64,000 nt of DNA, from the IMG/VR virus record IMGVR_UViG_3300045988_159436. One strand, written 5' to 3'. Position numbers and translations under genes: made by a program. The notes under the pieces were generated by a model that saw only the letters and a list, made by a program, of their open reading frames with translations, was not told where the DNA came from and ran no database searches. The stretch's first letter is position 1; every line of letters begins with the position of its first letter. Shown here one piece after another: positions 15,349-61,898 of the stretch. This DNA is from a virus.

Positions 15349-15420
15349 GAAACCGAGAAAAAGTTTGGATAGTTGGACAGAGAGGTCTAGAAACCGAGAG
15401 ACCGAGACTAAAATTTTTAG

Positions 15421-15449
15421 TTGTGAGAAAATAAAGAAGATTATATAAT
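15421..15449 (+). promoter_or_regulatory. promoter for DGR TR-RT transcript
   Basis: TTGTGA-17-TATAAT, 47 bp upstream of TR. Confidence 0.45.
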
Positions 15450-15495
15450 AATATTATATAAGGGCATATATGATACTTAGATTGGCAAGATTTTT

Positions 15496-15608
15496 TTGCT
15501 GTTGAGTTCTAACTGGAATAATGGCACGAATTGCAGTTCTCGTTCAGCTAATTGCAATGATTCATCAGCTAATGTGAATGTCAACAACTCTTCTCGTAGT
15601 ACGTCTGA
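15496..15608 (+). repeat. DGR template region (TR)
   Basis: non-coding copy of VR; adenine-rich AAY codons at variable positions. Confidence 0.85.
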
Positions 15609-15759
15609 TACGTGGGTGATTTTAAAGCAGGTGCGGCTTACCCTCGGCTGATTATATATGCCTCACTGAAAAGTGAAATACAAAACAGGGAGAAATAGGG
15701 GCTAGTAAAGTAATTGAACGTCCTTATTTCTAAATTTTATTAAATTAAAAGGATAATTA

Positions 15760-16776
15760 ATGAAAAGAAAAGGAAATTTATGGACTAAAATAATAGACAA
15801 AAGCAATTTATATTTGGCTTTTGAGAAAGCTAAAAGACATAAAAGTTGGCAAAGAAAGGTTAAAATTATAGAAGCAAATTTAGATTATTATATTGAAAAG
15901 TTACAAAATGATTTGATAACAGGTCAATATAAAACTGCTGAATATAAGTTAAAAACAATTTATGAGCCAAAGAAAAGAGATATTTATATTTTGCCATTTT
16001 ATCCAGATAGGATAGTTCATCACGCTATTATGAATGTTTTAGAGCCTATATGGGATAATAGATTTATTTATAATAGTTATGCTTGTCGAAAAAATAAAGG
16101 TCAACATAAAGGCAGTATAAAATGTATGGAATACACTAGAAAGTTTAAATATTGTTTGAAATGTGATATAAGTAAATTTTATCCTTCTATTAATCACAGG
16201 CTTCTAAAGAAAGTGATACGTAAAAAAATAAAATGTAAAAAGACTTTAAATTTATTAGATGAGATAATTGATAGTGTTGATACGCCTGTAAATGTTCCTA
16301 TAGGAAATTATTTAAGTCAGTGGTTTGGAAACTTATATTTAAATGAGTTAGATGTTTTTCTAAAGCAAGAGAATTGTGTAAAAAATTATTTAAGATATTG
16401 CGATGATTTTTTATTATTTTCTGATGATAAAACATATTTAAATAAAATGGCTAAAATAATAAATGAATATGTAGTTAATATTTTAGAATTAAAACTTAGC
16501 AAATGTGTTTTGTTTCCAACAGCACAAGGAGTTGATTTTTTAGGATATAGACATTTCCATGCTGGTTATGTTTTGGTAAGAAAATCAACAGCTAAAAGAA
16601 TGAAGCGTAGGATTAAAAGATTAAAATATGAATTATTAAAGAATAAAATAAGTCAAGATAAGGCTTTATCTGTTGTAGCAAGTTTATCTGGGGGGTTAAG
16701 ATGGGCTAATAGTTACAATTTAAAAATGTCTTTAGAGCTAGAATTATTAAAAAAGGAATTAGGAGGAAACTCTTAG
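15760..16776 (+). CDS. DGR reverse transcriptase
   Basis: 338 aa; motifs PIGNYLSQWFGNLYLNELD and YCDDFLLF (YxDD) typical of DGR RTs. Confidence 0.85.
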   Translation: MKRKGNLWTKIIDKSNLYLAFEKAKRHKSWQRKVKIIEANLDYYIEKLQNDLITGQYKTAEYKLKTIYEPKKRDIYILPFYPDRIVHHAIMNVLEPIWDNRFIYNSYACRKNKGQHKGSIKCMEYTRKFKYCLKCDISKFYPSINHRLLKKVIRKKIKCKKTLNLLDEIIDSVDTPVNVPIGNYLSQWFGNLYLNELDVFLKQENCVKNYLRYCDDFLLFSDDKTYLNKMAKIINEYVVNILELKLSKCVLFPTAQGVDFLGYRHFHAGYVLVRKSTAKRMKRRIKRLKYELLKNKISQDKALSVVASLSGGLRWANSYNLKMSLELELLKKELGGNS

Positions 16777-29010: not shown

Positions 29011-30501
29011 ATGGCTATTAAAGTTTTTATAAGTAACTCTCAATTATTAAAAAACTTAACAGATATAGAAAAAGAACGAATAAAAAAAGATTTAACTTTT
29101 AAAAATCCTGAATATGAAAGTATTCTTAAATTCTCTAGATGGGGTAGCACTAAAGTTCCAGAATTTCTTTATTATTATAAAGAAGTAGGGGATAGCTTAG
29201 AAGTTCCTAGAGGATATAAGATACCTTTTAATTATGAAGTAGTAGAAGATACCTCAATTAGTTTTAATAATATAGAATATCCATCAGTACAAATCCAGCC
29301 TAGAAAAGTACAACAGGTAGCAATAGAGCATTTCACTGATAATACTGGAACACTTGTTATAAATACAGGGTTAGGTAAGTCAATAATTGGTTTGATGCTG
29401 GCAGGAAAGCTAAAAGAAAGGGTATTAATTATAGTTAATAAAGACGATTTAATAGATGGTTGGCAAAAAGATGCTCTGTTGTGCTATGGGGAAATAGAAA
29501 TAGGTTTAGTAAAAGGCAAGGTTTTCAATATAGGAAAACAAATTACTTTAACTACGATACAGACTCTTTCTAGGCTAGGTGACGAAAAGCTTGATAAATT
29601 AAAAGAAAGTATATCAATGTTAATTTGTGATGAATGTCATAGGTGTTCTGCTAAGATATACAGTGTTCTGAATGGCTTTCCTGCCAGATATCGTTTAGGG
29701 TTAACAGCAACTAAAATGAGAAATGATGGATTAGCAGATGTATTAGATTTAATTTGTGGGCATACATTGTATGAATACAAAGGAGAATTTGAAACTTCTG
29801 ATATTATAGATACAAAAGACATTTTTGTAATAAAGAGAGAGAGTCAGTTGAAATGGAATCCAGTGATTGATTATTACTGGACGAAAAGCGGAGCAAAAGT
29901 AAAAGCATTAGTATATAAAGATAAAGTATTTGCGCCACATACGCCAGAATGGAAAGCTTTAATAACACAGTTATTAAGTACAAAAGAAGTTGATAGTTTA
30001 CCTGTTAATTTACAGGAAGCTTATAAAACTGTATCAGAAGATTTAACATTTAACAGATTAGTTGTTGAAGATATTATAAAAGAATATAATTCAGGAAAAT
30101 CTTGTATAGTGTTTTGTAAAGAGAAAGAGCATATAAATTTATTGTATGATATGTTGGTAGATATATGTCCAAGAATACAAAAATACTATGGAGATATGAA
30201 AGAAACAAAAGCAGAAATAAAAGAAAAAGCAGAAACAAAAGAAGCATTAATTACATTAGCTACTATTTCTATTAGTTGTGAAGGAACTAACGTAAAATCA
30301 TGGGAGAGAGGATTTCTTGTATCTACAGTGGCAAACAAGAAAGATTTAATACAGATTTTAGGAAGGTTACGAAGAACTAAAGATGGTAAGACTAATGTAT
30401 TTTTTTATGATTACAGACATCCTTTTATGGCAATTTTTAATAAGCATGGAGTAAAGAGGGATAAGTGGTATAGAGAAATAGGAATTACAAAAATTATTTA
30501 A
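29011..30501 (+). CDS. SF2 DNA helicase (DEAD/DEAH-like)
   Basis: Walker A NTGLGKS, DECH box, LGLTAT, QILGRLRR motifs. Confidence 0.7.
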   Translation: MAIKVFISNSQLLKNLTDIEKERIKKDLTFKNPEYESILKFSRWGSTKVPEFLYYYKEVGDSLEVPRGYKIPFNYEVVEDTSISFNNIEYPSVQIQPRKVQQVAIEHFTDNTGTLVINTGLGKSIIGLMLAGKLKERVLIIVNKDDLIDGWQKDALLCYGEIEIGLVKGKVFNIGKQITLTTIQTLSRLGDEKLDKLKESISMLICDECHRCSAKIYSVLNGFPARYRLGLTATKMRNDGLADVLDLICGHTLYEYKGEFETSDIIDTKDIFVIKRESQLKWNPVIDYYWTKSGAKVKALVYKDKVFAPHTPEWKALITQLLSTKEVDSLPVNLQEAYKTVSEDLTFNRLVVEDIIKEYNSGKSCIVFCKEKEHINLLYDMLVDICPRIQKYYGDMKETKAEIKEKAETKEALITLATISISCEGTNVKSWERGFLVSTVANKKDLIQILGRLRRTKDGKTNVFFYDYRHPFMAIFNKHGVKRDKWYREIGITKII

Positions 30502-32840: not shown

Positions 32841-33228
32841 TCAATCTCTTCCAATTATCGCCTTTAACTTAGAGAGTTGTTTTTTTAACAATAAAACAAC
32901 GTTTGTTAATGAATTATTTAAAGATAAATATGAAATTTTGGGGATGCAGTATAACCCTCAACATTTAGATACTGTTATGAAGATTTGGAAAAGCGGAAAA
33001 TACTCAATTCATTTAGTGACTTATAAAGACCCAGATGAATGGAAAGAGCTTGAAGGATTTTTATTTGAAAAGTATTTATATTTTAACAATCTAGAATTTA
33101 TTGAGGGCTTTAAGGAATTGAAGAGATTTTGTGAATTAAAGTATCTTTATTATGTAGACGATGGAGATAGATTATTTTTACCTAAGAACGCTGTTTCAAT
33201 GCAAGAGTTTTTAGGGGTGATGAAATGA
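32818..33228 (+). CDS. hypothetical protein
   Basis: ORF. Confidence 0.4.
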   Translation: MKRGQLTNQSLPIIAFNLESCFFNNKTTFVNELFKDKYEILGMQYNPQHLDTVMKIWKSGKYSIHLVTYKDPDEWKELEGFLFEKYLYFNNLEFIEGFKELKRFCELKYLYYVDDGDRLFLPKNAVSMQEFLGVMK

Positions 33229-34472
33229 GCGTAGATTCTAATTTTATTTTAAAATTATTAGAAACTAAGGATTGGAAAACAGTAGCGGAGAAAAGAATAT
33301 CTGCCAAGTTTTTCAACCCAGCTTATAAGAGAGTGTTTAATTATATTTCAGACTTTAAAATCAAATATGGTGATATCCCTAGTGCAGAGTCATTAAAAGC
33401 AAGATTTCCAGAGCTTGACTTTACTGGAAGGGTAGCAGAGCCATTTGAATTTTATTGTGATGAATTAAGAAATAAAGTTAAGCATAATTTATTAAGGGAC
33501 ACAATACTTTCTGTGCAAACAGATATAAACTCATTGAATACAGAAGAAGCAGTTAAGAAGTTACAGAAACTAATACAAAATATTGATTCTGAAATTGTTC
33601 TTAACGATACCTGTAAAATAGGTGAAAGAACAGAAGAGCGTTTTGAGCAGTACAAAGAGCGGCAAAAAACAGGTGGCATTTCTGGGATGCCTATAGGTTT
33701 ATTGCCGATAGATAAACAGATAGGTGGGGTTAAAGAATTAGACCTTATAACTTTCTTAGGATACACAGGAACTGGTAAAACGTGGCTCTTGTGCATTATT
33801 GCTGTAGCAATGGCAAAAATGGGATATAAGGTTTTGTTTTTAACTAAAGAAATGTTGCCAGCTCAATTAATAGACAGAATTGATGCAGTATGGTCAGGGA
33901 TAAGCTACTCTCGTATTAAAGATGGTCAGTTATCGCCACAAGAAGAAGAGAAGTATTATAAGTATCTTTTAGAAGAAGCACCAAAATATAAAGATAAGTT
34001 AATTGTTGAATTAGTCGAGGGCGGTGTAATATCTTGTGGAAGTTCCATTGATTTACATAAGCCAGATGTCTGTTTAATTGATGGTGGTTATTTAATGGCT
34101 GATGATTCTGAGGATGATGACTGGCGGGGAATTTTAGAAGTATGGAGAGGATTTAAAGCATTAGCTCGAAACAGAAAAGTCCCAATTCTTTGCACCTCAC
34201 AGTTAAAGGGAGAGACTGCGACATTAAGTAATATTTCTTATGTCAAAGCCTTAGCCCAAGAAGCGGATGCTGTTTATGGTTTAGAGCAAGATAAAACAGA
34301 TAAGGCGGAGAAAGAGATAAAAATAGTAACTTTAAAAGTGCGTGATGGCGAATGGAAACCACCTTTTAAAATGAGTTGGGATTTTACTGAAATGAAACAT
34401 GATTTATTATATGTGGAAGAAGAAAAGAAAAGGACACCAATAGCGGTAAAACAAATACAAAGGATTGAGTAG
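33225..34472 (+). CDS. DnaB-like replicative helicase
   Basis: Walker A GYTGTGKT in the C-terminal RecA-like domain; N-terminal DnaB-like helical region. Confidence 0.6.
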   Translation: MSVDSNFILKLLETKDWKTVAEKRISAKFFNPAYKRVFNYISDFKIKYGDIPSAESLKARFPELDFTGRVAEPFEFYCDELRNKVKHNLLRDTILSVQTDINSLNTEEAVKKLQKLIQNIDSEIVLNDTCKIGERTEERFEQYKERQKTGGISGMPIGLLPIDKQIGGVKELDLITFLGYTGTGKTWLLCIIAVAMAKMGYKVLFLTKEMLPAQLIDRIDAVWSGISYSRIKDGQLSPQEEEKYYKYLLEEAPKYKDKLIVELVEGGVISCGSSIDLHKPDVCLIDGGYLMADDSEDDDWRGILEVWRGFKALARNRKVPILCTSQLKGETATLSNISYVKALAQEADAVYGLEQDKTDKAEKEIKIVTLKVRDGEWKPPFKMSWDFTEMKHDLLYVEEEKKRTPIAVKQIQRIE

Positions 34473-35445
34473 TATGAGAATAGAAGAACTTTTAACTGTA
34501 TGCGAAGCATTAAATATAAAGAATATCAAAGTAGTAGGTAATGATATTATGGCATCTTGTTGTTTTCATCAAGATACAAGACCTTCTTTCGGTTTAAACG
34601 CTGAAAAAGAATGTTATCATTGTTTTGGCTGTGGTGAGAGCGGAACAATAATTGGCTTAATAGCAAAATGTTTAAACATCTCATATGCCGAAGCTAGGTT
34701 AAAGCTTGATGAAATAATTGGAGAACAGGCGCAGAAAGTTGAAGAAGTTCCTTTACGAGAATACGAAGAAGTTCCAGAGCAAGAGGAAAGATTTGTTTTA
34801 TCTAATTCTTCATTGGGGGCGTTTCACAGCGGGCAAGTATTCCATAAATACTTTATTGAAAGAGGATTTAGCCCAGAAGACCAACAAAGGTTTTTATTTG
34901 GCTGGGATTCGCAAAAGAAAAGAATTACTATTCCTGTATTTTGGGAAGATGGGCAATTATGTGGGTTTATAGGTAGAGCAGTGCTTAATGATAAAACACA
35001 AGAATATGCGAATATTTATGGTAAAGCCCCTAAATATTATGTATATGATAATTTCCCACGTTCAGGAATTTTGTTTCCTTTGAATTTGTTTAGACCTATC
35101 AATGATACTGTCATTTTAGTAGAAGGAGTATTAGATGCTCTATGGCTACAAAAACATGGTTACGCAAATGCTTTAGCCATATTAACTTGTAGTATCTCAG
35201 ACGCTCAAATTTCACTTCTGAGGAGTTTTAATATTAAAAAGGTAATATTAGCCTTAGACGGAGATAAAGCTGGTCAGAACGGCTGTAAACGCATATACGA
35301 CCTATGTAAGAATGAGTTTGTGTTTAGTATTGTGAATTACCCAGAAAATTGTAAAGATGTTCAAGACATGAATAAAGAACAGTTAGATTATATGTTTACT
35401 AATTTAGAGATGTATCCAAGATTAAAATTAAGAAAAATAGAATAG
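34465..35445 (+). CDS. DnaG-like DNA primase
   Basis: zinc finger CCFHQDTRPSF..CYHCFGCGESG; Toprim EGVLDA...LDGDKAG. Confidence 0.7.
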   Translation: MSSMRIEELLTVCEALNIKNIKVVGNDIMASCCFHQDTRPSFGLNAEKECYHCFGCGESGTIIGLIAKCLNISYAEARLKLDEIIGEQAQKVEEVPLREYEEVPEQEERFVLSNSSLGAFHSGQVFHKYFIERGFSPEDQQRFLFGWDSQKKRITIPVFWEDGQLCGFIGRAVLNDKTQEYANIYGKAPKYYVYDNFPRSGILFPLNLFRPINDTVILVEGVLDALWLQKHGYANALAILTCSISDAQISLLRSFNIKKVILALDGDKAGQNGCKRIYDLCKNEFVFSIVNYPENCKDVQDMNKEQLDYMFTNLEMYPRLKLRKIE

Positions 35446-35454
35446 GAGAAAAGA

Positions 35455-36186
35455 ATGGTAGCTTCAATTTTTAAAAGAGGATTTCAGGCAAGGGCAGAAG
35501 TAGAAAAGACCACTAAAAAAGGTGGGTATATTAAAGATTATTTTTTAACAGCGAGGGATAATCCTGATGCGCCAGTTAGATTTTTAACTGATGAACCTAT
35601 CAGTTTTTGGAGTCACAATGTTCAAGAAGGTGGCAGATACAATAACTATGCTTGCACTTGTGAACCAGATTGTCCATTGTGTCAGGCGGGAGCACCTAGA
35701 AGCTTCAAATCAGCTTATTTAGTAGTAGATGGCAGACAAGGTAGCTATATCAGCAAAAAAACAGGGGAAAAAGTGGAGTTTGATAAAGCGGTGGCTGTCC
35801 TTTTAAGGGGTAACGATTGCGGCATTATTGAGCGTAATAGACAGCGTTATGGGCTGTTAGATGCGCCTTATTACGCAACACGTATGGGACAGAAACCAAG
35901 TATTTCTTATTTGTTTGACAAAGCAGGAGCAGAGATTTTTGAGAAATATCCATATTTGGATAAAGATATTTTTGCTATTGGAGAGTTAAACGAAGCGGCG
36001 AAAGAAAAGATTCAGGAATTACTGCCTGATAAATATAGAGGGCTTGATTATTATGAAATCATTGAAAAGAAATTCCCATTTTATGGTGTTGAAGACACTT
36101 CTTTCGATACTGCAACAGTTTTGGAAGAGCCAGAGCCTATTCGTCCAGCAGGATTTAGCAGAGTTCTGATAAGGGAAGTGGATTAA
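35455..36186 (+). CDS. hypothetical protein (Cys-rich CTCEPDCPLC)
   Basis: ORF with RBS aggagaa. Confidence 0.4.
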   Translation: MVASIFKRGFQARAEVEKTTKKGGYIKDYFLTARDNPDAPVRFLTDEPISFWSHNVQEGGRYNNYACTCEPDCPLCQAGAPRSFKSAYLVVDGRQGSYISKKTGEKVEFDKAVAVLLRGNDCGIIERNRQRYGLLDAPYYATRMGQKPSISYLFDKAGAEIFEKYPYLDKDIFAIGELNEAAKEKIQELLPDKYRGLDYYEIIEKKFPFYGVEDTSFDTATVLEEPEPIRPAGFSRVLIREVD

Positions 36187-36587
36187 TGGCTAAATGGTCT
36201 CAAAAAGCATTAGATTCTTGTATGAAGTATTGGCAGAAAATTTTAGGACTTAGTCATTGGGATATAGTTATTACATATGCAAATAATAGGGATATTGAAT
36301 ATTTATTGGGCTACCCAGCATTAGCAAGTATTTCTTCTAGCCCTTCTATGGAGAGGGCAATAATTCGGATAAACAGTAATCCTGAGCTTGACGAAGATGC
36401 TATTATAAATGGCAGTGATGATGTTGAGTGGAGTATACTTCACGAATTATTGCATCTTTATTACCTAGATTTATATATAAATAAAGAAGATAAAGCACAA
36501 ACAGAATTGATAGAAAAAATTATCAATAAGACTTGTAAAGCATTATTGACTACAGGAAGGTTTAGAAATGGGCGCAATAGCAGATAG
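36186..36587 (+). CDS. hypothetical protein with HExxH motif (HELLH)
   Basis: ILHELLHLYY. Confidence 0.35.
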   Translation: MAKWSQKALDSCMKYWQKILGLSHWDIVITYANNRDIEYLLGYPALASISSSPSMERAIIRINSNPELDEDAIINGSDDVEWSILHELLHLYYLDLYINKEDKAQTELIEKIINKTCKALLTTGRFRNGRNSR

Positions 36588-36858
36588 ACAAACTTTAATT
36601 AATAAAATAGCAGAGCAAAATAATATTACTTCAACAGAGGCAAATAATATTATTAAGATGTTTTGTAAAGGCGTAGAAGGAGTTTTAGAAGAATATGCTG
36701 GATTAGTTTTGCCTAGATATTTTTCTTTAGTATCTAGACAACAAGATATAAAAACTTCTTATAACATTCATACTAAGACTTTTCAAGATAGAAAACCTTT
36801 TAACAGGTTTGTTTTCAAGCCAAGTAAAAAATGGAAGAAGTTAATTAATAAGGAGTGA
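36568..36858 (+). CDS. HU/IHF-like DNA-binding protein
   Basis: 96 aa; pattern of N-terminal helix and beta-arm similar to HU. Confidence 0.45.
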   Translation: MGAIADRQTLINKIAEQNNITSTEANNIIKMFCKGVEGVLEEYAGLVLPRYFSLVSRQQDIKTSYNIHTKTFQDRKPFNRFVFKPSKKWKKLINKE

Positions 36859-36862
36859 TTAT

Positions 36863-39386
36863 TTGTTTCATCAAAGATTCTTTAAATTAACTATTGTCAA
36901 TAAAGAGAATGTTGATAGATTTTTTGAGGAATATGAACGAGCGAAACAAATTTTCTTTGACTTTGAAACTTCTGGATTAGATGTAAGATATAAGGGGAAA
37001 GATTATGCAGTAGGATTAACAGTAGCCTTTGAAGATAGTGTCAGTAAGGAAGTATACTATATTCCTTTCAGACACTATTTTGAAGGTAGCTATATTGGTT
37101 GTGGGAGACTCGATTACCGTAAAAACACTGCGGTTTTTGATGATGCTAAAAATTTTCCTGATTTTTTACCAGAAAAGTTTTCAGGAGAATATTATAATAT
37201 GGATATTGTTGATTTTATGGAACGATTGAAGCCTTTAATGGAAAATGGCGGGAAAGAGTATATAGCCCATCATATTTCATTTGACTTACATTTATTTGCA
37301 AATGAAGGTGTAGATATAGTAAAAGTGTTTGAAACAAATACTTTTACTGATACACAAATAGCTGTACATACTTTAGATGAAGAACAAGAGAAGAATTTAG
37401 AAGCAGTAACTGAAACAATTTTCTCTGTAAAAAAATCTCATTTTAAAGATACTATTATGACAGTTACTAAAGAGGAAAAGAAACTTTTGGGATTAGCTTC
37501 TAATAGTAATGCTAGTTTTCAACACGTTCAGATTCCAATAGGAGCACAATATTCAGCAGAAGATGTATATTTTATGAAAGAAATGTATGAGCCAATTCTT
37601 AATGCGTTAAGAGAAGATGGTGGTTACGAATATTTTAGAGAAGTACGAATGCCATATATGAAAGTTTTGTGGAAAATGGAACGTAATGGAATCAAAGTTG
37701 ACATAGAAAAACTTGAAGGTATGATAAAATTAGCAGAAGAAAAATTGGAAGAATTAACATACAAAATATATGAAGTAGTAGGAGCTAAATTTAATATTAA
37801 CAGTGGTCAACAGTTATTTGAGATATTATATGGTTTTAAAAAGAAATTAAAGGATAAGAAAACAGGGGAATATAAAGAGTCTTTTAATGAAGATTTAGTA
37901 GCATTAAATTTTGGTTTTAAGCCTATCGCATGGACAGAGGGCGGGAAATCAAGAGATATGGTATTAAGAACACCAAAAACAGATAAAGATGCGCTAAAGA
38001 AATTATTAAGACAAACTCCTAAAAGAGAAGATGGGCATAAATTAATTAAACTTCTACAAGATTATTTTAAATTAACAAAATTGTATACAGCATTTATGCT
38101 GGGTATAAAAGAAAAAATATATTGTGATGGAAAAGTACATCCAAGCTTCAACCAAAATGGTTGTCTTGTAGCAAACACTTTAATTCCTACAGATAGGGGA
38201 TTGTTCCGCATTCAGGATTTAGTAACAGATGCTTTAGTTGATGGTGAATTTGTTTCTAAAACCTATACGCTATTAAATCGAAATTTAGAACCTGAAAAGA
38301 CTTCCCATATAGTTAAATATGAGAATAGGAATACTATAAAAATTCGTACTGCTTTAGGGGTTACTATCGAAGGAACTGAAAATCACCCAATAATATGTAA
38401 TAAATATTCTTCAAAAGATTTATACCTTAATAGGAATAGTTGTCGTTTTAAAAATTTATATAAGAAAAAGGATGCTCAAATTTTCAAGCGTTTAGATGAG
38501 ATAAATACTGAAACTTATGTAGCAGTCCCTTATGGTTATAATTTTTTTGCTAAAGATTATCAGAAACTTGAATATGAATATGTTGCAATGCGTAGTGGAT
38601 TTAAGCAAGTTAAATTACCAGAAATTTTAGATGAAGATGTGGCAGAGTTTATGGGGATGTATTATGCAGATGGGTGTTTATCAGACACAAATGGTACTTT
38701 TACTATTTGCTTTACTAATGGAGATTCCTGTGTAATAAATCGTATACAAGAATTGTCTTTAAGACTTTTTGGAATAAAAGCACATGTTCGTGACTGTCAT
38801 CCTCATAGAAATTCTTTGGATATTAGAATTAGTGCTAAAAGACTTGCTAGTATTGAGAAAGCTTTTCAGCTTAAAAGAGGATGCACAAACAAAGTTATTC
38901 CTGATATTATTTTACAGTCCCCAAGAAGTGTTGTAATAGCTTTCATAAAAGGAATGACATTAGATAGTTATTTTGTAGAAGAATCTAATAAAAAACAGCT
39001 AAGATTTACTGTTTCAAATGAGCAAAGTCTTTTTCAACTTCAAACATTGCTATTGAATTTAGGTATTATTGGTGGGGCAAGACATCTCAATACTTATACT
39101 GGAAATGTTTATATGCTAACATTAACTAATGGAGAATATTTAAAGTTTAGAGATATCGTAGGATTTGTTCAAAAGAAAAAGTATAAAGATTTTGAGTATC
39201 AAAGAATTTCTGGTCAATATTTAGTAGATGAAGGTAATTCATTAATTTGGGTAAAGGTTAAAGAAATAGATAAAGGAAGGGCAGATGTTTATGACTTTAC
39301 TCTACCCGAAACACATAGTTTTATTTCAAATGGGTTTATTAGTCATAATACATCATCATTTAGGCTAAGTTGTTCTGACCCGAACT
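36863..39386 (+). CDS. polA: DNA polymerase I (family A) exon 1: 3'-5' exo plus N-terminal pol region, interrupted by intein
   Basis: Exo I FDFETSGLD; region ..SFNQNG[intein]TSSFRLSCSDPN aligns with Taq RFNQTATATGRLSSSDPN; the ORF stops right after DPN. Confidence 0.75.
38162..39349 (+). mobile_element. intein with LAGLIDADG homing endonuclease domain (in frame in polA)
   Basis: starts CLVANTLIPTDRG (block A), ends FISHN followed by Thr (+1); internal MGMYYADGCLSD and IAFIKGMTLDSYF LAGLIDADG-like motifs; 396 aa. Confidence 0.75.
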
Positions 39387-39652
39387 AAACAGATGGTTCG
39401 CTAGGCAAGAAATTCCTAGAAAAATTAACTGCTCTAACTCGGTGAAACTCCACCAATAAAAGGACAACACCGAACTAAGTTAGTTAGCGATAACTAAAAA
39501 GTGTAACGACTAGAGAAAGTAGGCTATATTAGTCGAAATCTCCACGAATGGGCAGAGCCTAAACCGAAAGGCATGGCTAAGATATAGTCTGAACTCCGTA
39601 CAATGGTAAAGACGGAGAAGCGGGGATAAAGAGCCCCGTGATAACATAATTG
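39387..39652 (+). ncRNA. group I intron 1 in polA (boundaries about +-5 nt)
   Basis: no ORF; S-element AAGAUAUAGUCU at 39579-39590; ends ..gataacataattG; the flanking exons restore ..SDPN|(F)QQLPKP.. Confidence 0.55.
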
Positions 39653-39987
39653 TTCAACAGCTTCCTAAGCCTTTAGAAGAGCCTAAAGATGGTGAAGATA
39701 GAAGTTACTATGATTTTTGGATACAATTTGAAATAAGAAGTTTAATGATAGCTGACAATGAAGACGAAGTAATTGTTGCGGCAGATTATCATGCTCTGGA
39801 AAAGTTTTTAACAGCGCATTTTTCAAAAGACCCATTGTTGATTAAAATGCTAAAAGAGAAACTTGACCCACATGGAACAGTAGCAACAATTATTTTTCCA
39901 GAATTAGCAGATGCAGACCCAAATTCAATTAAGAAGTTAGCACCACATAAAAGAAATGTGGCTAAGACTGTAGGTTTCGCTCAAATC
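39653..39987 (+). CDS. polA: DNA polymerase I exon 2 (motif A to motif B)
   Basis: VIVAADYHALEKFLTAHF (motif A DYSQIELR-like) ... KRNVAKTVGFAQ (motif B). Confidence 0.6.
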
Positions 39988-40185
39988 TAGGGTGAAGTAA
40001 AATCCCTCTCAAAACGGTGAAAGCCTAACAGGTTAATACCGTGCCGAACTCTGTGAAAACAGCGGTGTAGAGACTTATAATGTATCGGCTATGTTAAAAC
40101 ATAAATCAATCGAATACATTTAATGGGGGATAGGAGCAAGCTCCTAAAGGTATAGTCCGACACTCTTGGCAACAGGAGAAAACAG
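39988..40185 (+). ncRNA. group I intron 2 in polA (boundaries uncertain by about +-10 nt)
   Basis: R-like gtgtagagactta 40065-40077; S-element AAGGUAUAGUCCGAC 40147-40161 (compare Tetrahymena AAGAUAUAGUCGGAC); no ORF. Confidence 0.5.
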
Positions 40186-40549
40186 AATGGTAGATTATGG
40201 CGGTTCAAAAATAGCGGTAGCAAGAAATCTAGAGATAGATGAAAAGACCGCACAAGAATATATAGATAGATATTTTGAAGGTTTTGCAGGGTTAAGAAAA
40301 TACGATAGAGATTTAATTCAATTTGCTAGAAAGAATGGTTATATAGAAACATTATTTTCTGGGCATAAACGTCACTTGTGGGGGATAAATTCCCAAGATG
40401 GCAGAACACGTTCATATTATGAGCGGCTAGCAGTTAATTCAAAATCACAAGGGGCGGCGGCAGATTGCACAACATTAGCACAGATAGATGTGGATAATGA
40501 TGTAGTATTAAAATCTATTGGTGCAAGACAAATACTTAATGTACACGAT
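40186..40549 (+). CDS. polA: DNA polymerase I exon 3 (motif B tail to motif C)
   Basis: DYGGSKIAVARNLEIDEKTAQEYIDRYF aligns with YGMSAHRLSQELAIPYEEAQAFIERYF; ends ..ILNVHD. Confidence 0.6.
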
Positions 40550-40866
40550 AAACTTTAGTCAAATAACTTGTCGTGTTTAAACTCTTCGATATGCTGGAAC
40601 GCAAAAATACAGTATTACCAAAGAGTGACAATATACTGTATATCACGAAAGTGTGTAGCCAATCAGCAGGGAGGAAATGAGAGCATTTCACCCTCACAGA
40701 CTAACAAAAGCATAGAATAGTAGGAACTGCACATTACTACTATTTGAGAAGTGAGTAGAGTACGGCTTTGTTGAGATACAAAGTGGGTTGACATCCTTAA
40801 ATGGAAGCGGGGAGGCATAGTGCAGATGTATGATATAGTCGAGTGTGTTTTTAAGCATACGTTATG
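40550..40866 (+). ncRNA. group I intron 3 in polA
   Basis: Q AAUCAGCAGG exact at 40661-40670; R UCACAGACUAAC 40694-40705; S GAUAUAGUCG 40832-40841; 5' splice after U40549, omega-G 40866; the junction gives NVHD|EIVMVCPKK matching QVHDELVLEAPKE. Confidence 0.65.
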
Positions 40867-41022
40867 GAGATAGTCATGGTTTGTCCTAAAAAGTTTGCAG
40901 AATTATGCAAGCAGAGATTAACTTTTCATATGGAAAATTGTTTACCAAGCAGGGGTATAAATTTAACAATTCCATTAGAAGCCGTAGGAGATATAGGTAG
41001 AACTTATAGTGAAGCAAAATAA
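40867..41022 (+). CDS. polA: DNA polymerase I exon 4 (C-terminal 51 aa)
   Basis: EIVMVCPKKFAELCKQ...TIPLEAVGDIGRTYSEAK matches the Pol I C-terminus ..VPLEVEVGIGxxWxxAK. Confidence 0.6.
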   Translation, partial: EIVMVCPKKFAELCKQRLTFHMENCLPSRGINLTIPLEAVGDIGRTYSEAK

Positions 41023-41069: not shown

Positions 41070-41444
41070 ATGACAATTAAAGTAGGTGGACAGATGGCAG
41101 ATGATTTAGTTTACCGAGGAGATGCTTCTTCTTCTAAAACATCTTCTGGTGAATATGAAGAAGTTTTAAAACTTTTAGAAGCTCAGGTAGGAATGCTTGA
41201 AGACATAAATAATCGTTTACAAAAGTGTGTTGTTGGGGAGACCATTTCAGTTGAAAGTGTAGCCCCAGAAGGGTTAGTACCAAATGTTCTTGGTATACGT
41301 TTAAGTAGATTAGAGGATAAGTTAGAAGTTATTATTAGAGATTATTCTGATTGTGTTGATGTAATTGAAGAGAAATTAGGCAAGATGACATTACAGGGGG
41401 GATACTTTGCCAGATTTAAAGCAGTTAGTAAAGACTATAAATAA
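41070..41444 (+). CDS. hypothetical protein
   Basis: ATG after aaggagg RBS (the track start 41022 overlaps the promoter). Confidence 0.45.
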   Translation: MTIKVGGQMADDLVYRGDASSSKTSSGEYEEVLKLLEAQVGMLEDINNRLQKCVVGETISVESVAPEGLVPNVLGIRLSRLEDKLEVIIRDYSDCVDVIEEKLGKMTLQGGYFARFKAVSKDYK

Positions 41445-42498
41445 AGCGCATGGTAAGAACGCTATACGTTTAGGGGCAACTATTAAAGAGCAGATGTCCT
41501 ATAAGATTTCAACAGGTAGTGTGGCTTTAGATTATGTAATTGGTGGTGGAATACCTTCTGGAAGATTAATAACTATTGCAGGAGCTTATTCTACTGGTAA
41601 ATCATTATTAGCTTATAAGATGATTGCTAATGTTCAAAAAATGAAAAAGAAACTTGTTACAGTTGATGGCGAAGATATAGAAATTGTAGCAGAAGATGGT
41701 GATATTCCTTTAACTTGTGCTTTGATACAAACGGAACAAGGTAGTCTTACAAAAGAATGGGCAATAGAAAACGGCATAGATTTAGAGTCACTTTTATTTT
41801 GCCAACCTGATGGAATGGAAGAAGCTTTAGATATAGCTATAGCCTTGCAGAGAGCAGGAGTAGAATTGATTGTTATTGATTCTTATGCCGCTTTACTACC
41901 TACTAAAGTATTAACTTCTGACTTTGATGAAAGCTATCAAATGGGAATCAAGCCTAAAATGTTAGGTGAGTATCATGGTAAATTTCAGTTGTTTAATAAT
42001 GCATTAGAGCGAGAAGGAAAACTTCCTTCTACGGTTGTTGCAATTAATCAGTTGAGAGAGAAAATTGGCGTGATGTATGGAAGTCCAGAGTATACAACAG
42101 GTGGTAGAAGCACTGGATTTACAAATACTTTAGAGATTAGATTACGTATGGGTGATACTATTGCAGTAGGTAGTGGAGAAACAAAAAGAATTGTAGGTAA
42201 GACAATCAAATTTAGAATCGAGAAAAATAAAGCTGGCGTTCCTTATGGAACAGGTGAGTATGATATTTATACAGACACTTGTGATTATATTCAAAGAGGG
42301 GATATTGATAACGAAAAAGCATTAATTATGATTGCAGTATTGTTAGGAATAGTTGAGCGCAGAGGTGGCTGGTATTACTATAATGGTGAGCAGTTATCAC
42401 AGGGGCAAGATAATTTAATTAAATTATTGCGTTCTAACAGAGCTTTATTTGAAGAGATAAGGGAAAAGGTGTTAACATCAGATGAGCATATACAATAG
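41407..42498 (+). CDS. RecA-family recombinase (UvsX/Sak4-like)
   Basis: Walker A GAYSTGKS; ELIVIDSYAALLP Walker B region; RecA-like N-terminal AHGKNAIRLG. Confidence 0.6.
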   Translation: MPDLKQLVKTINKAHGKNAIRLGATIKEQMSYKISTGSVALDYVIGGGIPSGRLITIAGAYSTGKSLLAYKMIANVQKMKKKLVTVDGEDIEIVAEDGDIPLTCALIQTEQGSLTKEWAIENGIDLESLLFCQPDGMEEALDIAIALQRAGVELIVIDSYAALLPTKVLTSDFDESYQMGIKPKMLGEYHGKFQLFNNALEREGKLPSTVVAINQLREKIGVMYGSPEYTTGGRSTGFTNTLEIRLRMGDTIAVGSGETKRIVGKTIKFRIEKNKAGVPYGTGEYDIYTDTCDYIQRGDIDNEKALIMIAVLLGIVERRGGWYYYNGEQLSQGQDNLIKLLRSNRALFEEIREKVLTSDEHIQ

Positions 42499-46932: not shown

Positions 46933-47589
46933 ATGTATATTACAGAGATTTTTAGTAGTATTCAAGGTGAGGGGAAGTATACAGGCTATCCTACTACCTT
47001 TGTTAGATTATTTGGTTGCAATTTATTTGAGATGTCTCCTAGCTATGCTTGTAAGTATTGTGATGAGAAACATTCAATGACAGGCAAACGAATAAAGATG
47101 CATTTAGGATTGGTAATGGATAAGATAGGGGCATTAGGAAATAAATATGTTTGTATTACAGGTGGAGAACCTTTAATGCAGGAAGAAACTATGCCTTTAG
47201 TTTATGAATTATTGTATAATGATTATATTGTTACAGTAGAAACAAATGGGACAATTCCTATAGAGCATTGTGAATATGTAAGAAGTTATTCATATTGTAT
47301 GGATGTTAAATTACCTAGTAGCAGAACAGTATTAGCACCAGATTTAAATTGTTATAAGAATTTAGGAGAGCTAAAAGTAAATGATGAAGTTAAGTTTGTT
47401 ATTTCTAATATCCATGATTATGAAGAAGCAAAACGGATTTTAAAGAAATATAAAACTAAAGCAAGCCTTATTTTTTCTCCTGTGAATTGTGATTTAGAAT
47501 TAGCAAGAGAAATAATGGGTTGGTTAATGAAAGATAAACTAAAAGCTAAATTAGGATTACAAATACATAAATTATTAGAAATTAAATAG
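46933..47589 (+). CDS. queE: 7-carboxy-7-deazaguanine synthase (radical SAM)
   Basis: IFSSIQGEGKYTGYPTTFVRLFGCNL N-terminus typical of QueE. Confidence 0.65.
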   Translation: MYITEIFSSIQGEGKYTGYPTTFVRLFGCNLFEMSPSYACKYCDEKHSMTGKRIKMHLGLVMDKIGALGNKYVCITGGEPLMQEETMPLVYELLYNDYIVTVETNGTIPIEHCEYVRSYSYCMDVKLPSSRTVLAPDLNCYKNLGELKVNDEVKFVISNIHDYEEAKRILKKYKTKASLIFSPVNCDLELAREIMGWLMKDKLKAKLGLQIHKLLEIK

Positions 47590-54089: not shown

Positions 54090-55931
54090 ATGAAAAATGG
54101 ATATACGTTATTTCTTTCTGGCGTTGAACCAGAAGAAAATTTCTATACTGCAATAGACGTTACTTCTAGTCTATTGCAGTCTTATTGGTATATAAAGCGG
54201 CGTGGAAAAGATAAAATTGTAGAACGTTTTGATAAAGTTAAGAAGAACTCTTTGTTAATTGATAGTGGAGCACATACCTTTCTCACTTTAGCAGAATATC
54301 AAGATAAGACAGTAGATTATTGGGAAGAGTATATAAAAGGGTATATAGCTTTTGTAAGAAAACATAGAGAAAAAGTATTTGCTTGTGTTGAAATGGATAT
54401 AGATACTTTAGTAGGAACAGAACAAGTAAATAAATGGAGAGAAGAATACTTTCATTCTTTAGAGGAAGAGGGCATTCCTGTTATTTATGTTTATCATGCA
54501 GAAAAAGGATTGGAAGAGTGGGAAAGAATGTGTAAAGCATATCCCTATGTAGGATTCTCTTATAATGAATTTGAAGATGCTATTTTAATTGATAAATTAT
54601 TTGAAATAGCAATGGAATATAAAACTAAAGTACATGGTTTTGCAGTATCGGGGTATAGGGAATTATTAAAACATGAGTATTATACAAGTGACAGTACAAG
54701 CTGGATTACAGGAGCTCAATATGGAGAATTAAACTATTTTGAAGGTGGAAAATTAAAGCGGTTAACAAAAGAGAAATGGAAAAATGAATATTATGCAAAA
54801 ATACTTGATTTATGCACAAGTAAAAAGTTACTAGAAGCAGAGGCTCCTTATGAATTAATGCGTATTAGTGCTTTAAGCTATAAGAAATTAGAAGAGCATG
54901 TAAATGATATATTTAGAGGTAAAAGATATTGGGTTGGAAGAAAGGAAGTGTCTAAAGTAGCGAGTAAGGAAAATTTACCGCCAGTAGAATGGTTTTCAAC
55001 TGATATGGAAGATTGGCAAGAATGGGCACAGAAATTAAATATAGATACTAACCTTCCTGATGAAGCAGGTAAATCATTAGTTGTTGCCTGTTACAATTTT
55101 GTGACAGATAATCCTATTATAAATGAGTATCCTCTTGAAGAGTTAATTGATTTATGTGGGCTTTTTGGTGATAAGAAGTCAAATACTCTTACCAAGTGCC
55201 GAAAAGCCCTTAAAGAGCACTTTACAGCTCTCTTAAAGGGCAGTATGGATTTATCCACTTTGACAGAAGAAGAAGTAGAAGAGAAAAAAAATGTAGCTCC
55301 AAAAGAGCGGGAAGAGTATGTTCAAGAAAAAGAGTATGTAGAATGTACTGTTAGCAAGGAAGAGTGTCAAGGTTTATTAAAAGGATTATTAACTTCTGGT
55401 GTGACAGATGAAGCAGAGAAAGCTTTAATTGAACAGGGAATAGAGCCTATTTATGATGAGAATGGAAATATTAAAGCAGGTATTAAACGAATAAAGAAAA
55501 GAAAATCTTTAAGTTCAAGTGTGATGCCAGAGTTAAGTTGCAATATTTGTACTAAAGCACGGAGATGTCCTTTATATGAAGAAGGAATGCTTTGTGCTTA
55601 TAATAAAATGTTTAAGCAATTTGATACAAGAAATCCCGAAGATGTAGTAGATGCTATGAGCAGTATTGCAAATTTAAGTTTAGAAAGATTATCAAGGGCT
55701 GTAACATTTGAAAAGTTAGATGGTGGCTTAAATACTAAAGAAGTAACAGAGACAATGGCAGAAGCATGGAAATATCTTGAAAAGATACAAGAAATTCAAA
55801 CAAAGAGTGATAAAGTTATAGCAGAGCGTAGAGTTGTAACTTCTTCTAATGGCGATGTAGAAGTAAGAGAAAGTGTAACAGGAAATCCGCAAGGTTTATT
55901 GTCTGAGATTCTAAAAACAAAAAAAAGTTGA
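54090..55931 (+). CDS. dpdA: DpdA-like (tRNA-guanine transglycosylase family) DNA 7-deazaguanine transglycosylase with C-terminal extension
   Basis: LLIDSGAHTFLTL resembles TGT ILTDSGGFQVFSL; genomic association with queD/E/C. Confidence 0.4.
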   Translation: MKNGYTLFLSGVEPEENFYTAIDVTSSLLQSYWYIKRRGKDKIVERFDKVKKNSLLIDSGAHTFLTLAEYQDKTVDYWEEYIKGYIAFVRKHREKVFACVEMDIDTLVGTEQVNKWREEYFHSLEEEGIPVIYVYHAEKGLEEWERMCKAYPYVGFSYNEFEDAILIDKLFEIAMEYKTKVHGFAVSGYRELLKHEYYTSDSTSWITGAQYGELNYFEGGKLKRLTKEKWKNEYYAKILDLCTSKKLLEAEAPYELMRISALSYKKLEEHVNDIFRGKRYWVGRKEVSKVASKENLPPVEWFSTDMEDWQEWAQKLNIDTNLPDEAGKSLVVACYNFVTDNPIINEYPLEELIDLCGLFGDKKSNTLTKCRKALKEHFTALLKGSMDLSTLTEEEVEEKKNVAPKEREEYVQEKEYVECTVSKEECQGLLKGLLTSGVTDEAEKALIEQGIEPIYDENGNIKAGIKRIKKRKSLSSSVMPELSCNICTKARRCPLYEEGMLCAYNKMFKQFDTRNPEDVVDAMSSIANLSLERLSRAVTFEKLDGGLNTKEVTETMAEAWKYLEKIQEIQTKSDKVIAERRVVTSSNGDVEVRESVTGNPQGLLSEILKTKKS

Positions 55932-60725: not shown

Positions 60726-61898
60726 ATGTTAAATTGCAAAATTTGTGGTAATGAAATTAGTGGAACTTATACAATTTATCAAAAAGACGGAGTAGAATAT
60801 CCAGCACATATTGAATGCGTTGAAGAAAATAAGCAACATTGTGATGAGTGCAATAAATTTTTTGATAGAGAAGATTTAAAAACTACAACATTAGGAAACC
60901 ATTATTGCCCAGATTGTTTGTCTGAAAAAACTGTAGTTTGTGGAAAATGTGGTAAACACGTAGAAAATGCACCATTGAAAAGAGTAAATAGTGTATCTTA
61001 TTGTCAAGAATGTTTTGAACAGAAATGGGTATATTGTGCAAAATGTGGTAAAAGGGTTTTAAGAAGTAGAGCAAAAAATTTAAATAATACACATTATTGC
61101 GCTTCATGTGCTAGTTCTGTTGTTAAGGTAGAAAATTATAGTTACAAACCTACCCCTATATTTTGTGGTGTAGATAGTTCTCGTTATTTTGGTATTGAAG
61201 TCGAAACTGAGGGCAGAGAAAATAATCTTTATGCGGAAGAAATTATTGGAGATTCAAAAATTTTCTATGCAAAACATGATGGCAGTTTAAATGACGGAAT
61301 TGAATTTGTAAGTCATCCTTGCACTCTTAACTATTGGAGAGAGGAATCCAAGCTTGATGAATTTTGCAAAAGGGCGATTGGTTTAGGGTTTAATTCTCAT
61401 AAAACTACTTCTTGTGGATTGCATGTTCATATTACTAAATCTACAGTAGAAAGGGAAGCTTTTGAAAAAGTGCTTCTGTTTTTGAGTAATAACTGGGATG
61501 ATGTGGTGAAATTTACCCGCCGCAAAAGTTCCAGCATTAATAGATGGGCGGCTAATAATTTAGGGGATGCGCCAATGATTAAAACTTGTACTCTTGCACA
61601 AAAAATGAAATTAGTAAAAGAGTATTCTTCTGGCAGTCGTTATGTAGCAGTAAATGAAACATCTAAAACATATGAATTTCGTATTTTTAGGGGAACTTTA
61701 AAACCTGAAACTATTTTAGCTTGTATTGAGTTTTGCGATGCTCTTATCAATTTATGTGCTAGTTTGCCTTTTGCAAACATTGAAACAGCTAATTTTAATA
61801 CTTTAATGGAATTTGCAAAACCTAAAGGATGCTATAAAGAGCTTGTAGAATATTGGGAAACTCGAACAATGAAGAAAAAGGATGTTGTTCTTGGATAA
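60726..61898 (+). CDS. zinc-ribbon-fused amidoligase (glutamine synthetase-like COOH-NH2 ligase family)
   Basis: four CxxC..CxxC ribbons at the N-terminus; YFGIEVETEG, HDGSLNDGIEFVSHP, GLHVHIT motifs; adjacent to the GATase paralogs. Confidence 0.45.
   Translation: MLNCKICGNEISGTYTIYQKDGVEYPAHIECVEENKQHCDECNKFFDREDLKTTTLGNHYCPDCLSEKTVVCGKCGKHVENAPLKRVNSVSYCQECFEQKWVYCAKCGKRVLRSRAKNLNNTHYCASCASSVVKVENYSYKPTPIFCGVDSSRYFGIEVETEGRENNLYAEEIIGDSKIFYAKHDGSLNDGIEFVSHPCTLNYWREESKLDEFCKRAIGLGFNSHKTTSCGLHVHITKSTVEREAFEKVLLFLSNNWDDVVKFTRRKSSSINRWAANNLGDAPMIKTCTLAQKMKLVKEYSSGSRYVAVNETSKTYEFRIFRGTLKPETILACIEFCDALINLCASLPFANIETANFNTLMEFAKPKGCYKELVEYWETRTMKKKDVVLG

Follow-up and report, generated by a model that had tools for sequence, protein, structure and literature searches.

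A phage family-A DNA polymerase gene with one predicted intein and three predicted group I introns

Can a DNA polymerase gene whose coding sequence is spread over four open reading frame (ORF) pieces in different frames still specify a single working enzyme? The question is raised by the IMG/VR virus record IMGVR_UViG_3300045988_159436, of which a stretch of 64,000 nucleotides (nt), here called the window, was analysed, and in which a family-A DNA polymerase gene extends from 36863 to 41022 on the plus strand. A sequence-only reading of this DNA had traced PolA homology through four ORF pieces separated by ORF-less gaps, taking the gaps to be three group I introns and an in-frame insertion in the first piece to be an intein. 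Our analysis indicates that this is very probably one functional replicative polymerase gene of family A that has been invaded by four independent selfish elements, each at a highly conserved catalytic motif.

The polymerase gene and its natural alleles

Joining the four exons (Table 1) gives an open frame of 1122 codons, and removal of the in-frame block 38162-39349 leaves, by conceptual splicing, a mature product of 726 amino acids. As had been anticipated from the ORF pieces, this intein-free product is colinear from end to end with uninterrupted Pol I homologs, among them the metagenomic protein P0001 (736 amino acids, 65% identity to the spliced product); identity is 55-56% to a large set of proteins of about 751 amino acids and 33% to the polymerase of Bacillus phage BCD7. 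The Pfam models DNA_pol_A (254.9 bits) and DNA_pol_A_exo1 (35.4 bits) both match above their gathering scores, in a scan that used a 728-residue draft with two extra junction residues. All the invariant polymerase residues (D33/E35, D490, R546/K550/F554/Y558 and D675/E676) are present after conceptual splicing, motifs A, B and C are intact, and the exons contain neither frameshifts nor internal stops. The motifs that the sequence-only reading had assigned to single exons were all found there: the Exo I motif (FDFETSGLD) and the closing SDPN in exon 1, AADYHALE and KRNVAKTVGFA in exon 2, DYGGSKIA...NVHD in exon 3, and the Pol I C-terminus (EIVMVCP...TYSEAK) in exon 4. In the homolog alignment the residues flanking the intein and intron 3 (G433↓T434 and D675↓E676, the arrow marking a junction) are invariant, and those flanking intron 1 (N445-x-Q447) and intron 2 (F554-A555↓x-D557) are invariant or at least 90% conserved. 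Gene callers report the region as four ORFs, one of them of 841 amino acids with the intein buried in it.

Public metagenome and IMG/VR contigs are rich in members of this gene family, and this allowed alleles to be compared on related contigs (L-numbered) by means of BLAST maps and junction read-outs. IMG/VR relatives were retrieved with DNA patterns from the intron cores; a scan of IMG/VR with the single protein P0001 as query retrieved nothing. Genomes 94-99% identical to the window at the nucleotide level were found to lack each element precisely, in many combinations. The intein is absent from L002-4, L020, L024, L026, L028, L029, L032 and L036, which read AATGG(C/A)↓ACATCA at the position corresponding to 38161↓39350, with exactly 1188 nt missing and a flanking N-extein about 95-98% identical. 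Intron 1 is absent from L020 and L029, with the junction CCGAACT↓ACCAACAG, and in the L007-type allele that bears intron 1 the exon flanks, when joined, equal the intron-less sequence exactly, so that 39386↓39653 is exact. Intron 2 is absent from L024, L028 and L029 and from the more distant L005 (79% nucleotide identity), the junction being GGTTTCGCT↓GTAGATTATGG (39981↓40190), and intron 3 from L030, L032, L034 and L036, with GTACACGAT↓GAGATAGTC (40549↓40867). The junctions of introns 2 and 3 are those predicted for the spliced RNA, where that of intron 1 would read CCCGAACT↓TTCAACAGC. All four elements are present, as in the window, in L007-L010, L012 and L022, and none of them in L006, a 65%-identical relative; at least 10 independent contigs share the interrupted allele of the window. 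Given these precise empty sites in near-identical genomes, every element boundary is fixed to the base.

Most of the exon limits proposed by the sequence-only reading agree with these junctions, including the whole of exon 1 (36863-39386) and of exon 4 (40867-41022) and the placing of intron 3 after U40549 with a terminal G40866, which the intron-less alleles confirm. Two limits had to be moved: exon 2, given as about 39653-39987, begins as proposed and ends 6 nt earlier, at 39981, after GCT, while exon 3, given as about 40186-40549, ends as proposed and starts 4 nt later, at 40190, with GTA, the homologs reading GFA↓VDYGG. An intron 2 model with the junction 39988↓40191 (GFAQILDYGG) was rejected because homologs and intron-less alleles have the latter reading. 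Also rejected was a shift of the intron 1 boundaries by +1, which would give Tyr as in relatives, since the intron would then not end in G nor the exon in U.

The intein and the three introns

Several lines of evidence support the identification of the 396-residue in-frame insertion as a class-1 intein with a LAGLIDADG homing-endonuclease domain, its activity being predicted. Its translation scores above the cut-offs of Pfam Intein_splicing (51.7 bits, cut-off 35.8) and LAGLIDADG_3 (46 bits, cut-off 22.5) and of NCBIfam intein_Nterm (34.1, cut-off 24.5) and intein_Cterm (31.8, cut-off 15.6), which, together with its precise absence from close alleles, bears out the earlier proposal of an intein with two LAGLIDADG motifs. 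The termini expected of a splice-competent intein are there on alignment: Cys1, a block B of the form GTENHP (TxxH), the terminal His-Asn and a +1 Thr, the insertion site lying before the T of TSSFRLS (G↓TSSFR). The two LAGLIDADG motifs, FMGMYYADG and FIKGMTLDS, each have an acidic residue, and block F reads DVYDF..ETHSF. When the window intein was aligned with seven inteins that occupy this site in relatives, Cys1, block B (G-T/S-x-x-H-P), block F, the terminal His-Asn and the Thr were kept in all 8 allelic inteins, as were both LAGLIDADG motifs with their Asp residues. Of the proteins with solved structures, archaeal V-ATPase inteins and PI-PkoII are nearest to the window intein.

For the three gaps, a targeted scan of the 1.7 kb from 39300 to 41000 returned one Rfam Intron_gpI (RF00028) match per gap, with scores of 40.5, 38.4 and 21.7 bits for introns 1, 2 and 3, respectively (E 1.9e-8, 7.7e-8 and 7.8e-3). 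Rfam had been named by the sequence-only reading as a check on the gaps; the model was found in each, and in none did it reach the gathering score, so the structures were built by hand and tested on alignments of distinct alleles, with register-shifted controls and 500 shuffles. Every intron has a P1 with a U.G wobble at the 5' splice site, a G as its last nucleotide, and a P3-P9 core with a P3/P7 pseudoknot, in which P7 consists of a bulge-free core plus one bulged nucleotide. Extra P7.1 and P7.2 hairpins lie between P7 and the 3' strand of P3, the hallmark of subgroup IA; covariation is seen in the P7.1 of introns 1 and 3 and, by eye, in the P7.2 of intron 2, which MAFFT mis-registers. When the register was shifted as a control, each intron yielded 0-3 double changes. 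The core elements listed earlier can all be read from the sequence: Q (40661-40670), R (40694-40705) and S (40832-40841) of intron 3 and the S elements of intron 1 (39579-39589) and intron 2 (40147-40157). The precise empty sites and the covariation-supported structures thus support the assignment of all three gaps to group I introns, predicted ribozymes of the subgroup IA type, which in the window are compact (208-317 nt) and devoid of ORFs.

Intron 1 lies inside the codon that follows SDPN. Its P1 (CGAACU/GGUUCG) is paired in all cells of the alignment, and its structure of 63 pairs has 99.5% of cells paired and 17 pairs changed on both sides, a result reached by 0 of 500 shuffles; the minimum-free-energy fold (z -3.3) reproduces most helices. 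Intron 2 is inserted inside motif B and has a P1 of UUCGCU/GGUGAA, again paired in all cells. Of its 57 pairs, 97.7% of cells are paired and 9 pairs are changed on both sides, which was reached by 2 of 500 shuffles, and most helices are again reproduced by the minimum-free-energy fold (z -2.1).

Intron 3 parts the Asp of motif C from its Glu (HD↓E). All cells of its P1 (ACACGAU/GUCGUGU) are paired, and the first pair of this helix covaries between the exon and the guide sequence (A-U, C-G, G.U). The structure comprises 70 pairs, with 100% of cells paired, 11 pairs changed on both sides and 0 of 500 shuffles reaching this result; P8 has only 3 base pairs (bp), and a large peripheral insertion stands between P7 and the 3' strand of P3. 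The GGGGAG at 40809-14 covaries with the 5' strand of P3. Two other candidates for the 3' partner of P3, GAGAAG (40749-54) and GUAGAGU (40759-65), were rejected since they are not maintained in L005, and the same applies to the stem ACAUC/GAUGU and to the pairing AAAGC/GCUUU. The pair count leaves out a P5b hairpin (CAC/GUG), since MAFFT fails to align it structurally.

An in-frame stop codon occurs no more than 3 codons from each 5' splice site in the window (39386-39388, 39988-39990 and 40556-40558), which would halt ribosomes ahead of the ribozyme core. Not all relatives share this: in intron 3 of L005 the stop comes about 20 codons in.

Table 1. Coordinates of the polymerase gene, its intervening elements and neighbouring replication genes in the window
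Feature	Coordinates	Strand	Remarks
Whole family-A DNA polymerase gene	36863..41022	+	TTG start; TAA stop 41020-41022
Exon 1, whole	36863-39386	+	ends SDPN, then TAA
Exon 1, N-extein part	36863..38161	+	3'-5' exonuclease and N-terminal polymerase domain (Pfam DNA_pol_A_exo1, DNA_pol_A); ends ...SFNQNG
LAGLIDADG intein (predicted)	38162..39349	+	396 amino acids, in frame inside exon 1; CLVANTLIPTDRG...FISHN↓T
Exon 1, C-extein part	39350..39386	+	TSSFRLSCSDPN and first base (T) of split Phe codon
Group I intron 1 (predicted)	39387..39652	+	266 nt, no ORF, terminal G39652
Intron 1 helices	P1 39381-86/39395-400 (U39386.G39395); P3 39429-34/39550-55; P4 39439-44/39468-73; P6 39480-85/39492-97; P7 39508-12/39585-89; P7.1 39513-16/39539-42; P7.2 39522-26/39530-34; P9 39594-99/39612-17; P9.1 39620-25/39634-39		
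Exon 2	39653..39981	+	...(F)QQLPKPLEEP..., motif A (ADYHALE), first half of motif B (KRNVAKTVGFA)
Group I intron 2 (predicted)	39982..40189	+	208 nt, no ORF, no P2, terminal G40189
Intron 2 helices	P1 39976-81/39991-96 (U39981.G39991); P3 40003-08/40125-30; P4 40014-19/40037-42; P6 40043-46/40063-66 and 40051-54/40059-62; P7 40070 and 40072-75 with 40154-58; P7.1 40079-85/40114-20; P7.2 40091-95/40098-102; P8 40133-37/40140-44; P9 40163-68/40173-78		
Exon 3	40190..40549	+	VDYGGSKIA... (second half of motif B) to ...ILNVHD (first half of motif C)
Group I intron 3 (predicted)	40550..40866	+	317 nt, no ORF, terminal G40866
Intron 3 helices	P1 40543-49/40570-76 (U40549.G40570); P3 40582-87/40809-14; P4 40592-97/40663-68; P5a 40607-15/40633-41; P6 40671-79/40684-95; P7 40697 and 40699-703 with 40836-41; P7.1 40717-23/40737-43; P7.2 40766-71/40778-83; P9 40843-48/40855-60		
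Exon 4	40867..41022	+	EIVMVCP... (Glu of motif C) to ...GRTYSEAK and stop
Helicase	29011-30501	+	replication module
DnaB	33225-34472	+	replication module; intact in window
Primase	34465-35445	+	replication module
SSB-like	35455-36186	+	replication module
HU-like	36568-36858	+	replication module, precedes polymerase
RecA/UvsX	41407-42498	+	follows polymerase; uninterrupted in window

Expression of the gene and alternative explanations

We propose that the polymerase gene would be transcribed as one pre-mRNA, from which the three ORF-less introns would excise themselves by guanosine-initiated two-step transesterification, joining 39386 to 39653, 39981 to 40190 and 40549 to 40867. The spliced mRNA would then be translated into a precursor of 1122 amino acids, and the class-1 intein (Cys1 ... 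His-Asn, +1 Thr) would remove itself by protein splicing to leave the polymerase of 726 amino acids. The pattern of selection bears directly on this proposal. Between the window and L005, both of which have introns 1 and 3, the ratio of nonsynonymous to synonymous substitution rates (dN/dS) amounts to 0.081 over exons 2-4 and 0.063 over the N-extein, and for the exons downstream of the first in-frame stop it is 0.05-0.12, the same as upstream. Such purifying selection downstream of the first stop is not that of a pseudogene; the downstream exons must be translated as part of a selected protein, which calls for splicing or, far less plausibly, for pieces that are translated one by one and then assemble.

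Several observations weigh against this interpretation. RNA splicing and protein splicing, like spread by endonuclease-mediated homing, are deduced from sequence, and a scan of Joint Genome Institute (JGI) metagenome contigs for the spliced intron 1 junction returned only an unrelated chance match. All three Intron_gpI scores lie under the curated gathering score of 50 bits, and whole-window Rfam scans, both at the gathering score and at E<=1, returned no Intron_gpI match. The latter is explained by speed filters that tighten with sequence length, and because whole-window scans are insensitive for this reason, Rfam does not establish the absence of other introns in the window; neither a core-motif search nor tblastn with the intein and five relatives' endonucleases detected further elements there. 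The divergent covariation signal comes from one lineage per intron (L005 for introns 1 and 3, L013/L031 for intron 2) and therefore reflects few independent events. For intron 3, which has the lowest Rfam score (21.7 bits), the minimum-free-energy fold is no better than that of shuffles (z -0.71) and is uninformative. The codon restored by removal of intron 1 specifies Phe, at a position where Leu or Tyr is found in most homologs. Finally, the window introns carry no endonuclease gene and so cannot home by themselves.

Some of these points would fit a modified reading, which we consider unlikely yet the strongest of the alternatives, in which the folds are real and at least one intron splices inefficiently, conditionally or with a host or phage protein cofactor, polymerase output being limited or timed by splicing. 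Intron 3 would be the likeliest candidate, given its low Rfam score, unremarkable folding energy, 3-bp P8 and large insertion between P7 and the 3' strand of P3, and delayed splicing in vivo has been reported for some Bastillevirinae introns (PMC11878797). However, the complete pairing and 11 compensatory changes of intron 3, its conservation of 99.4-100% in most carriers (96-97% in five, 93.7% in L029) and the purifying selection that still acts on exon 4, downstream of it, all argue against this reading.

A split gene, whose pieces would be translated separately and assemble non-covalently, as in some split phage polymerases, with the intervening RNA inert, is very improbable. Exon 2 begins in the middle of a codon, with neither a start codon nor a ribosome-binding site; one break interrupts motif B and another parts the two catalytic acids of motif C, positions at which a non-covalent assembly of four pieces is implausible; and the conserved ribozyme structures, with their covariation between exon and guide in P1, would have no role. 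It is true that intron 2 (40173-40192) ends in AGGAGAAAACAGAATG↓GTA, a Shine-Dalgarno-like AGGAG followed by an ATG in frame with exon 3, and that intron 3 (40861-40869) ends in ATG↓GAG, in frame with exon 4, but the ATG of intron 2 is not conserved, being CTG in L013, and these endings are thus probably incidental.

Least probable of all, to the point of being negligible, is a pseudogene that was broken by the insertions and from which no functional enzyme is expressed, the outcome that the sequence-only reading had tied to a lack of spliced junction reads and of group I matches: in-frame stops after each exon, the division of the region into four ORFs by gene callers and sub-threshold Rfam scores would accord with it, whereas group I matches are present and the exons are under purifying selection as strong after the first stop as before it, free of frameshifts and internal stops and with every catalytic residue intact, the interrupted allele recurs in independent contigs, compensatory base pairing is kept in the introns, and no other polymerase gene was noticed in the window's replication module.

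Mobility, genome context and known systems

Related phages have versions of these three introns that are 520-580 nt longer, the addition lying in a peripheral loop. In intron 1 this is a 190-amino-acid ORF between 39562 and 39573 (window numbering), with no Pfam match and a GIY-YIG-like N-terminus by eye; in intron 2 it is an HNH ORF in the P8 loop, and in intron 3 a LAGLIDADG_2 ORF in the P6 loop; L011, L013 and L005, respectively, are examples. At the intron 1 position where others have the 574-nt endonuclease ORF, L028 (1690-1899) has a 209-nt insert, perhaps what decay has left of that gene.

In carriers whose flanking exons share about 96-99% identity with the window, identity to the window rises to 99.5-100% in the intein and, in most of them, to 99.4-100% in intron 3, the exceptions being L018, L021, L024, L025 and L027 (96-97%) and L029 (93.7%). 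This higher conservation of the intein, and of intron 3 in most carriers, relative to the surrounding exons suggests recent spread. A scan of bacterial and archaeal genomes in search of a host gave as its sole match a contig of a Bacillota metagenome-assembled genome, with a PolA 35% identical and a 46%-identical intein at the same site, and both observations are consistent with horizontal spread by homing. The ORF-less introns may have spread in trans, by way of the endonucleases of co-infecting relatives, or through flanking recombination. Since many of the 16 conceivable combinations of presence and absence occur among genomes 94-99% identical, we tentatively suggest, giving the idea nearly even weight, that the four homing elements could be actively cycling through one natural gut-phage population; if so, the locus would offer a natural system for the homing cycle and for interference between neighbouring selfish elements.

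Other insertions were observed in this group of phages. In L016 (7023-7887) and L017, more distant relatives, the polymerase genes, which are of the same family, have an intron with a GIY-YIG/NUMOD1 endonuclease ORF at a fourth site, between ...VNVMSQG and SAAD, where the window has no insertion. The recA/uvsX gene is split in L005 (9727-11108), L018, L021, L024, L025, L027, L029 and L034; in L005 an Rfam Intron_gpI match (23.5 bits, E 8e-4) falls within it at 10410-10700, and a 61-nt stretch there is 84% identical to part of window intron 3 (40749-40809). In L007 and L009 (1349-3611), otherwise near-identical relatives, DnaB is interrupted by some 1 kb of extra sequence coding for a LAGLIDADG_3 protein, and Rfam gave no intron match on the L007 insertion.

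The window is part of a large tailed-phage genome in which the long ORFs are all on the plus strand and a tape-measure and tail module precedes the replication module. It also contains a diversity-generating retroelement (13534-16776), made up of an Mtd-like target ORF (13534-15348; Pfam mtd_2nd, 7e-20) with a variable repeat at 15208-15320, a 113-nt template repeat at 15496-15608 that is 87% identical to it, with 15/15 mismatches at template adenines, and a reverse transcriptase ORF (15760-16776). Genes at 46933-47589, 54090-55931 and 60726-61898, a candidate set of a radical SAM protein, a queuine tRNA-ribosyltransferase/DpdA-like protein and an amidoligase-like protein, are suggestive of DNA or tRNA modification of the 7-deazaguanine type; the DpdA-like protein (613 amino acids, phrog_887 at 5e-55) is about 130 amino acids longer than the profile and has no Pfam match.

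How unusual is this gene? No nucleotide similarity to cultured phages was detected, neither the gene nor its introns giving a match against 50,697 phage records (megablast, blastn). The td, nrdB and nrdD (sunY) introns of phage T4 are the archetypes of subgroup IA2; T4 introns have a P1 with a U.G pair, a P3/P7 pseudoknot and P7.1/P7.2 between P7 and the 3' strand of P3, and in those that bear ORFs the endonuclease ORFs are looped out of peripheral stems. The window's introns have the same ribozyme architecture, whereas those of T4 lie in different host genes, one intron per gene.

Closer parallels are found in family-A polymerases. The Pol I genes of the Silviavirus phages Romulus and Remus contain an intein and a group I intron with an endonuclease gene (PMC7497331). 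In these Staphylococcus phages and in KSAP7/11, as in the window, a LAGLIDADG intein lies beside T(G/S)RLSS and a group I intron in the motif B region, and the inteins are homologous (29% identity over 396 amino acids; annotated as "putative intein" in NC_020877). Unlike the window, with its three ORF-less introns, Romulus and Remus have one intron, with the gene for the homing endonuclease I-RoReV; it follows FGLIYG, four residues downstream of the intron 2 site, and their intein splits GTA↓TSR at a point two residues downstream of G↓TSSFR. The closest intein in a cultured phage, that of Clostridium phage CS19 PolA (35% identity over its full length), is likewise two residues downstream, at GAK↓TGRFSS, in a gene annotated as one coding sequence without introns, and a homologous polymerase intein (30% identity) occurs in Bacillus phage Eldridge, a member of the Bastillevirinae. 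The intein site is A↓T or K↓T in CS19, Eldridge and Romulus (L150, L151 and L152) and, two residues farther upstream, G↓T in the window family, neighbouring and distinct, so that the window intein may represent a separate insertion allele. Pol I inteins are also listed for bacteria (PMC4760082).

Polymerase genes of the Bastillevirinae contain up to three group I introns, whose splicing has been shown in vitro and in vivo (PMC11878797). Their family-A polymerases and those of SPO1 (I-BasI, I-HmuI type) are split by one to three such introns, like that of the window, but the introns average about 800 nt and most have endonuclease genes, compared with the 208-317 nt and absence of ORFs seen here. 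The crAss-like phages reach a higher element density per genome (PMC7886860); in their Delta and Zeta groups, also uncultured gut phages, core genes are broken by several group I introns and inteins, although the lineage is different, the polymerase family mostly so, and the elements were recognised by encoded protein domains and not as ORF-less ribozymes.

We found no explicit description in the literature of one intein and three introns in a single PolA gene. In view of Romulus/Remus, the Bastillevirinae and the crAss-like phages, however, the earlier description of the arrangement as unusually dense was an overstatement: this kind of gene is well known, a pile-up of selfish elements in an essential phage gene is not unprecedented, and current understanding is not overturned. 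What the locus adds is a densely invaded example of the known preference of selfish splicing elements for the motifs that are most conserved in phage replication genes. Its exact exon and extein coordinates allow the product of 726 amino acids to be annotated correctly in widespread uncultured phages with genomes of about 100 kb, its compact introns could serve as small ribozyme scaffolds, and, because related contigs document the empty, ORF-less and ORF-bearing states of the sites, it should be useful for following homing dynamics.

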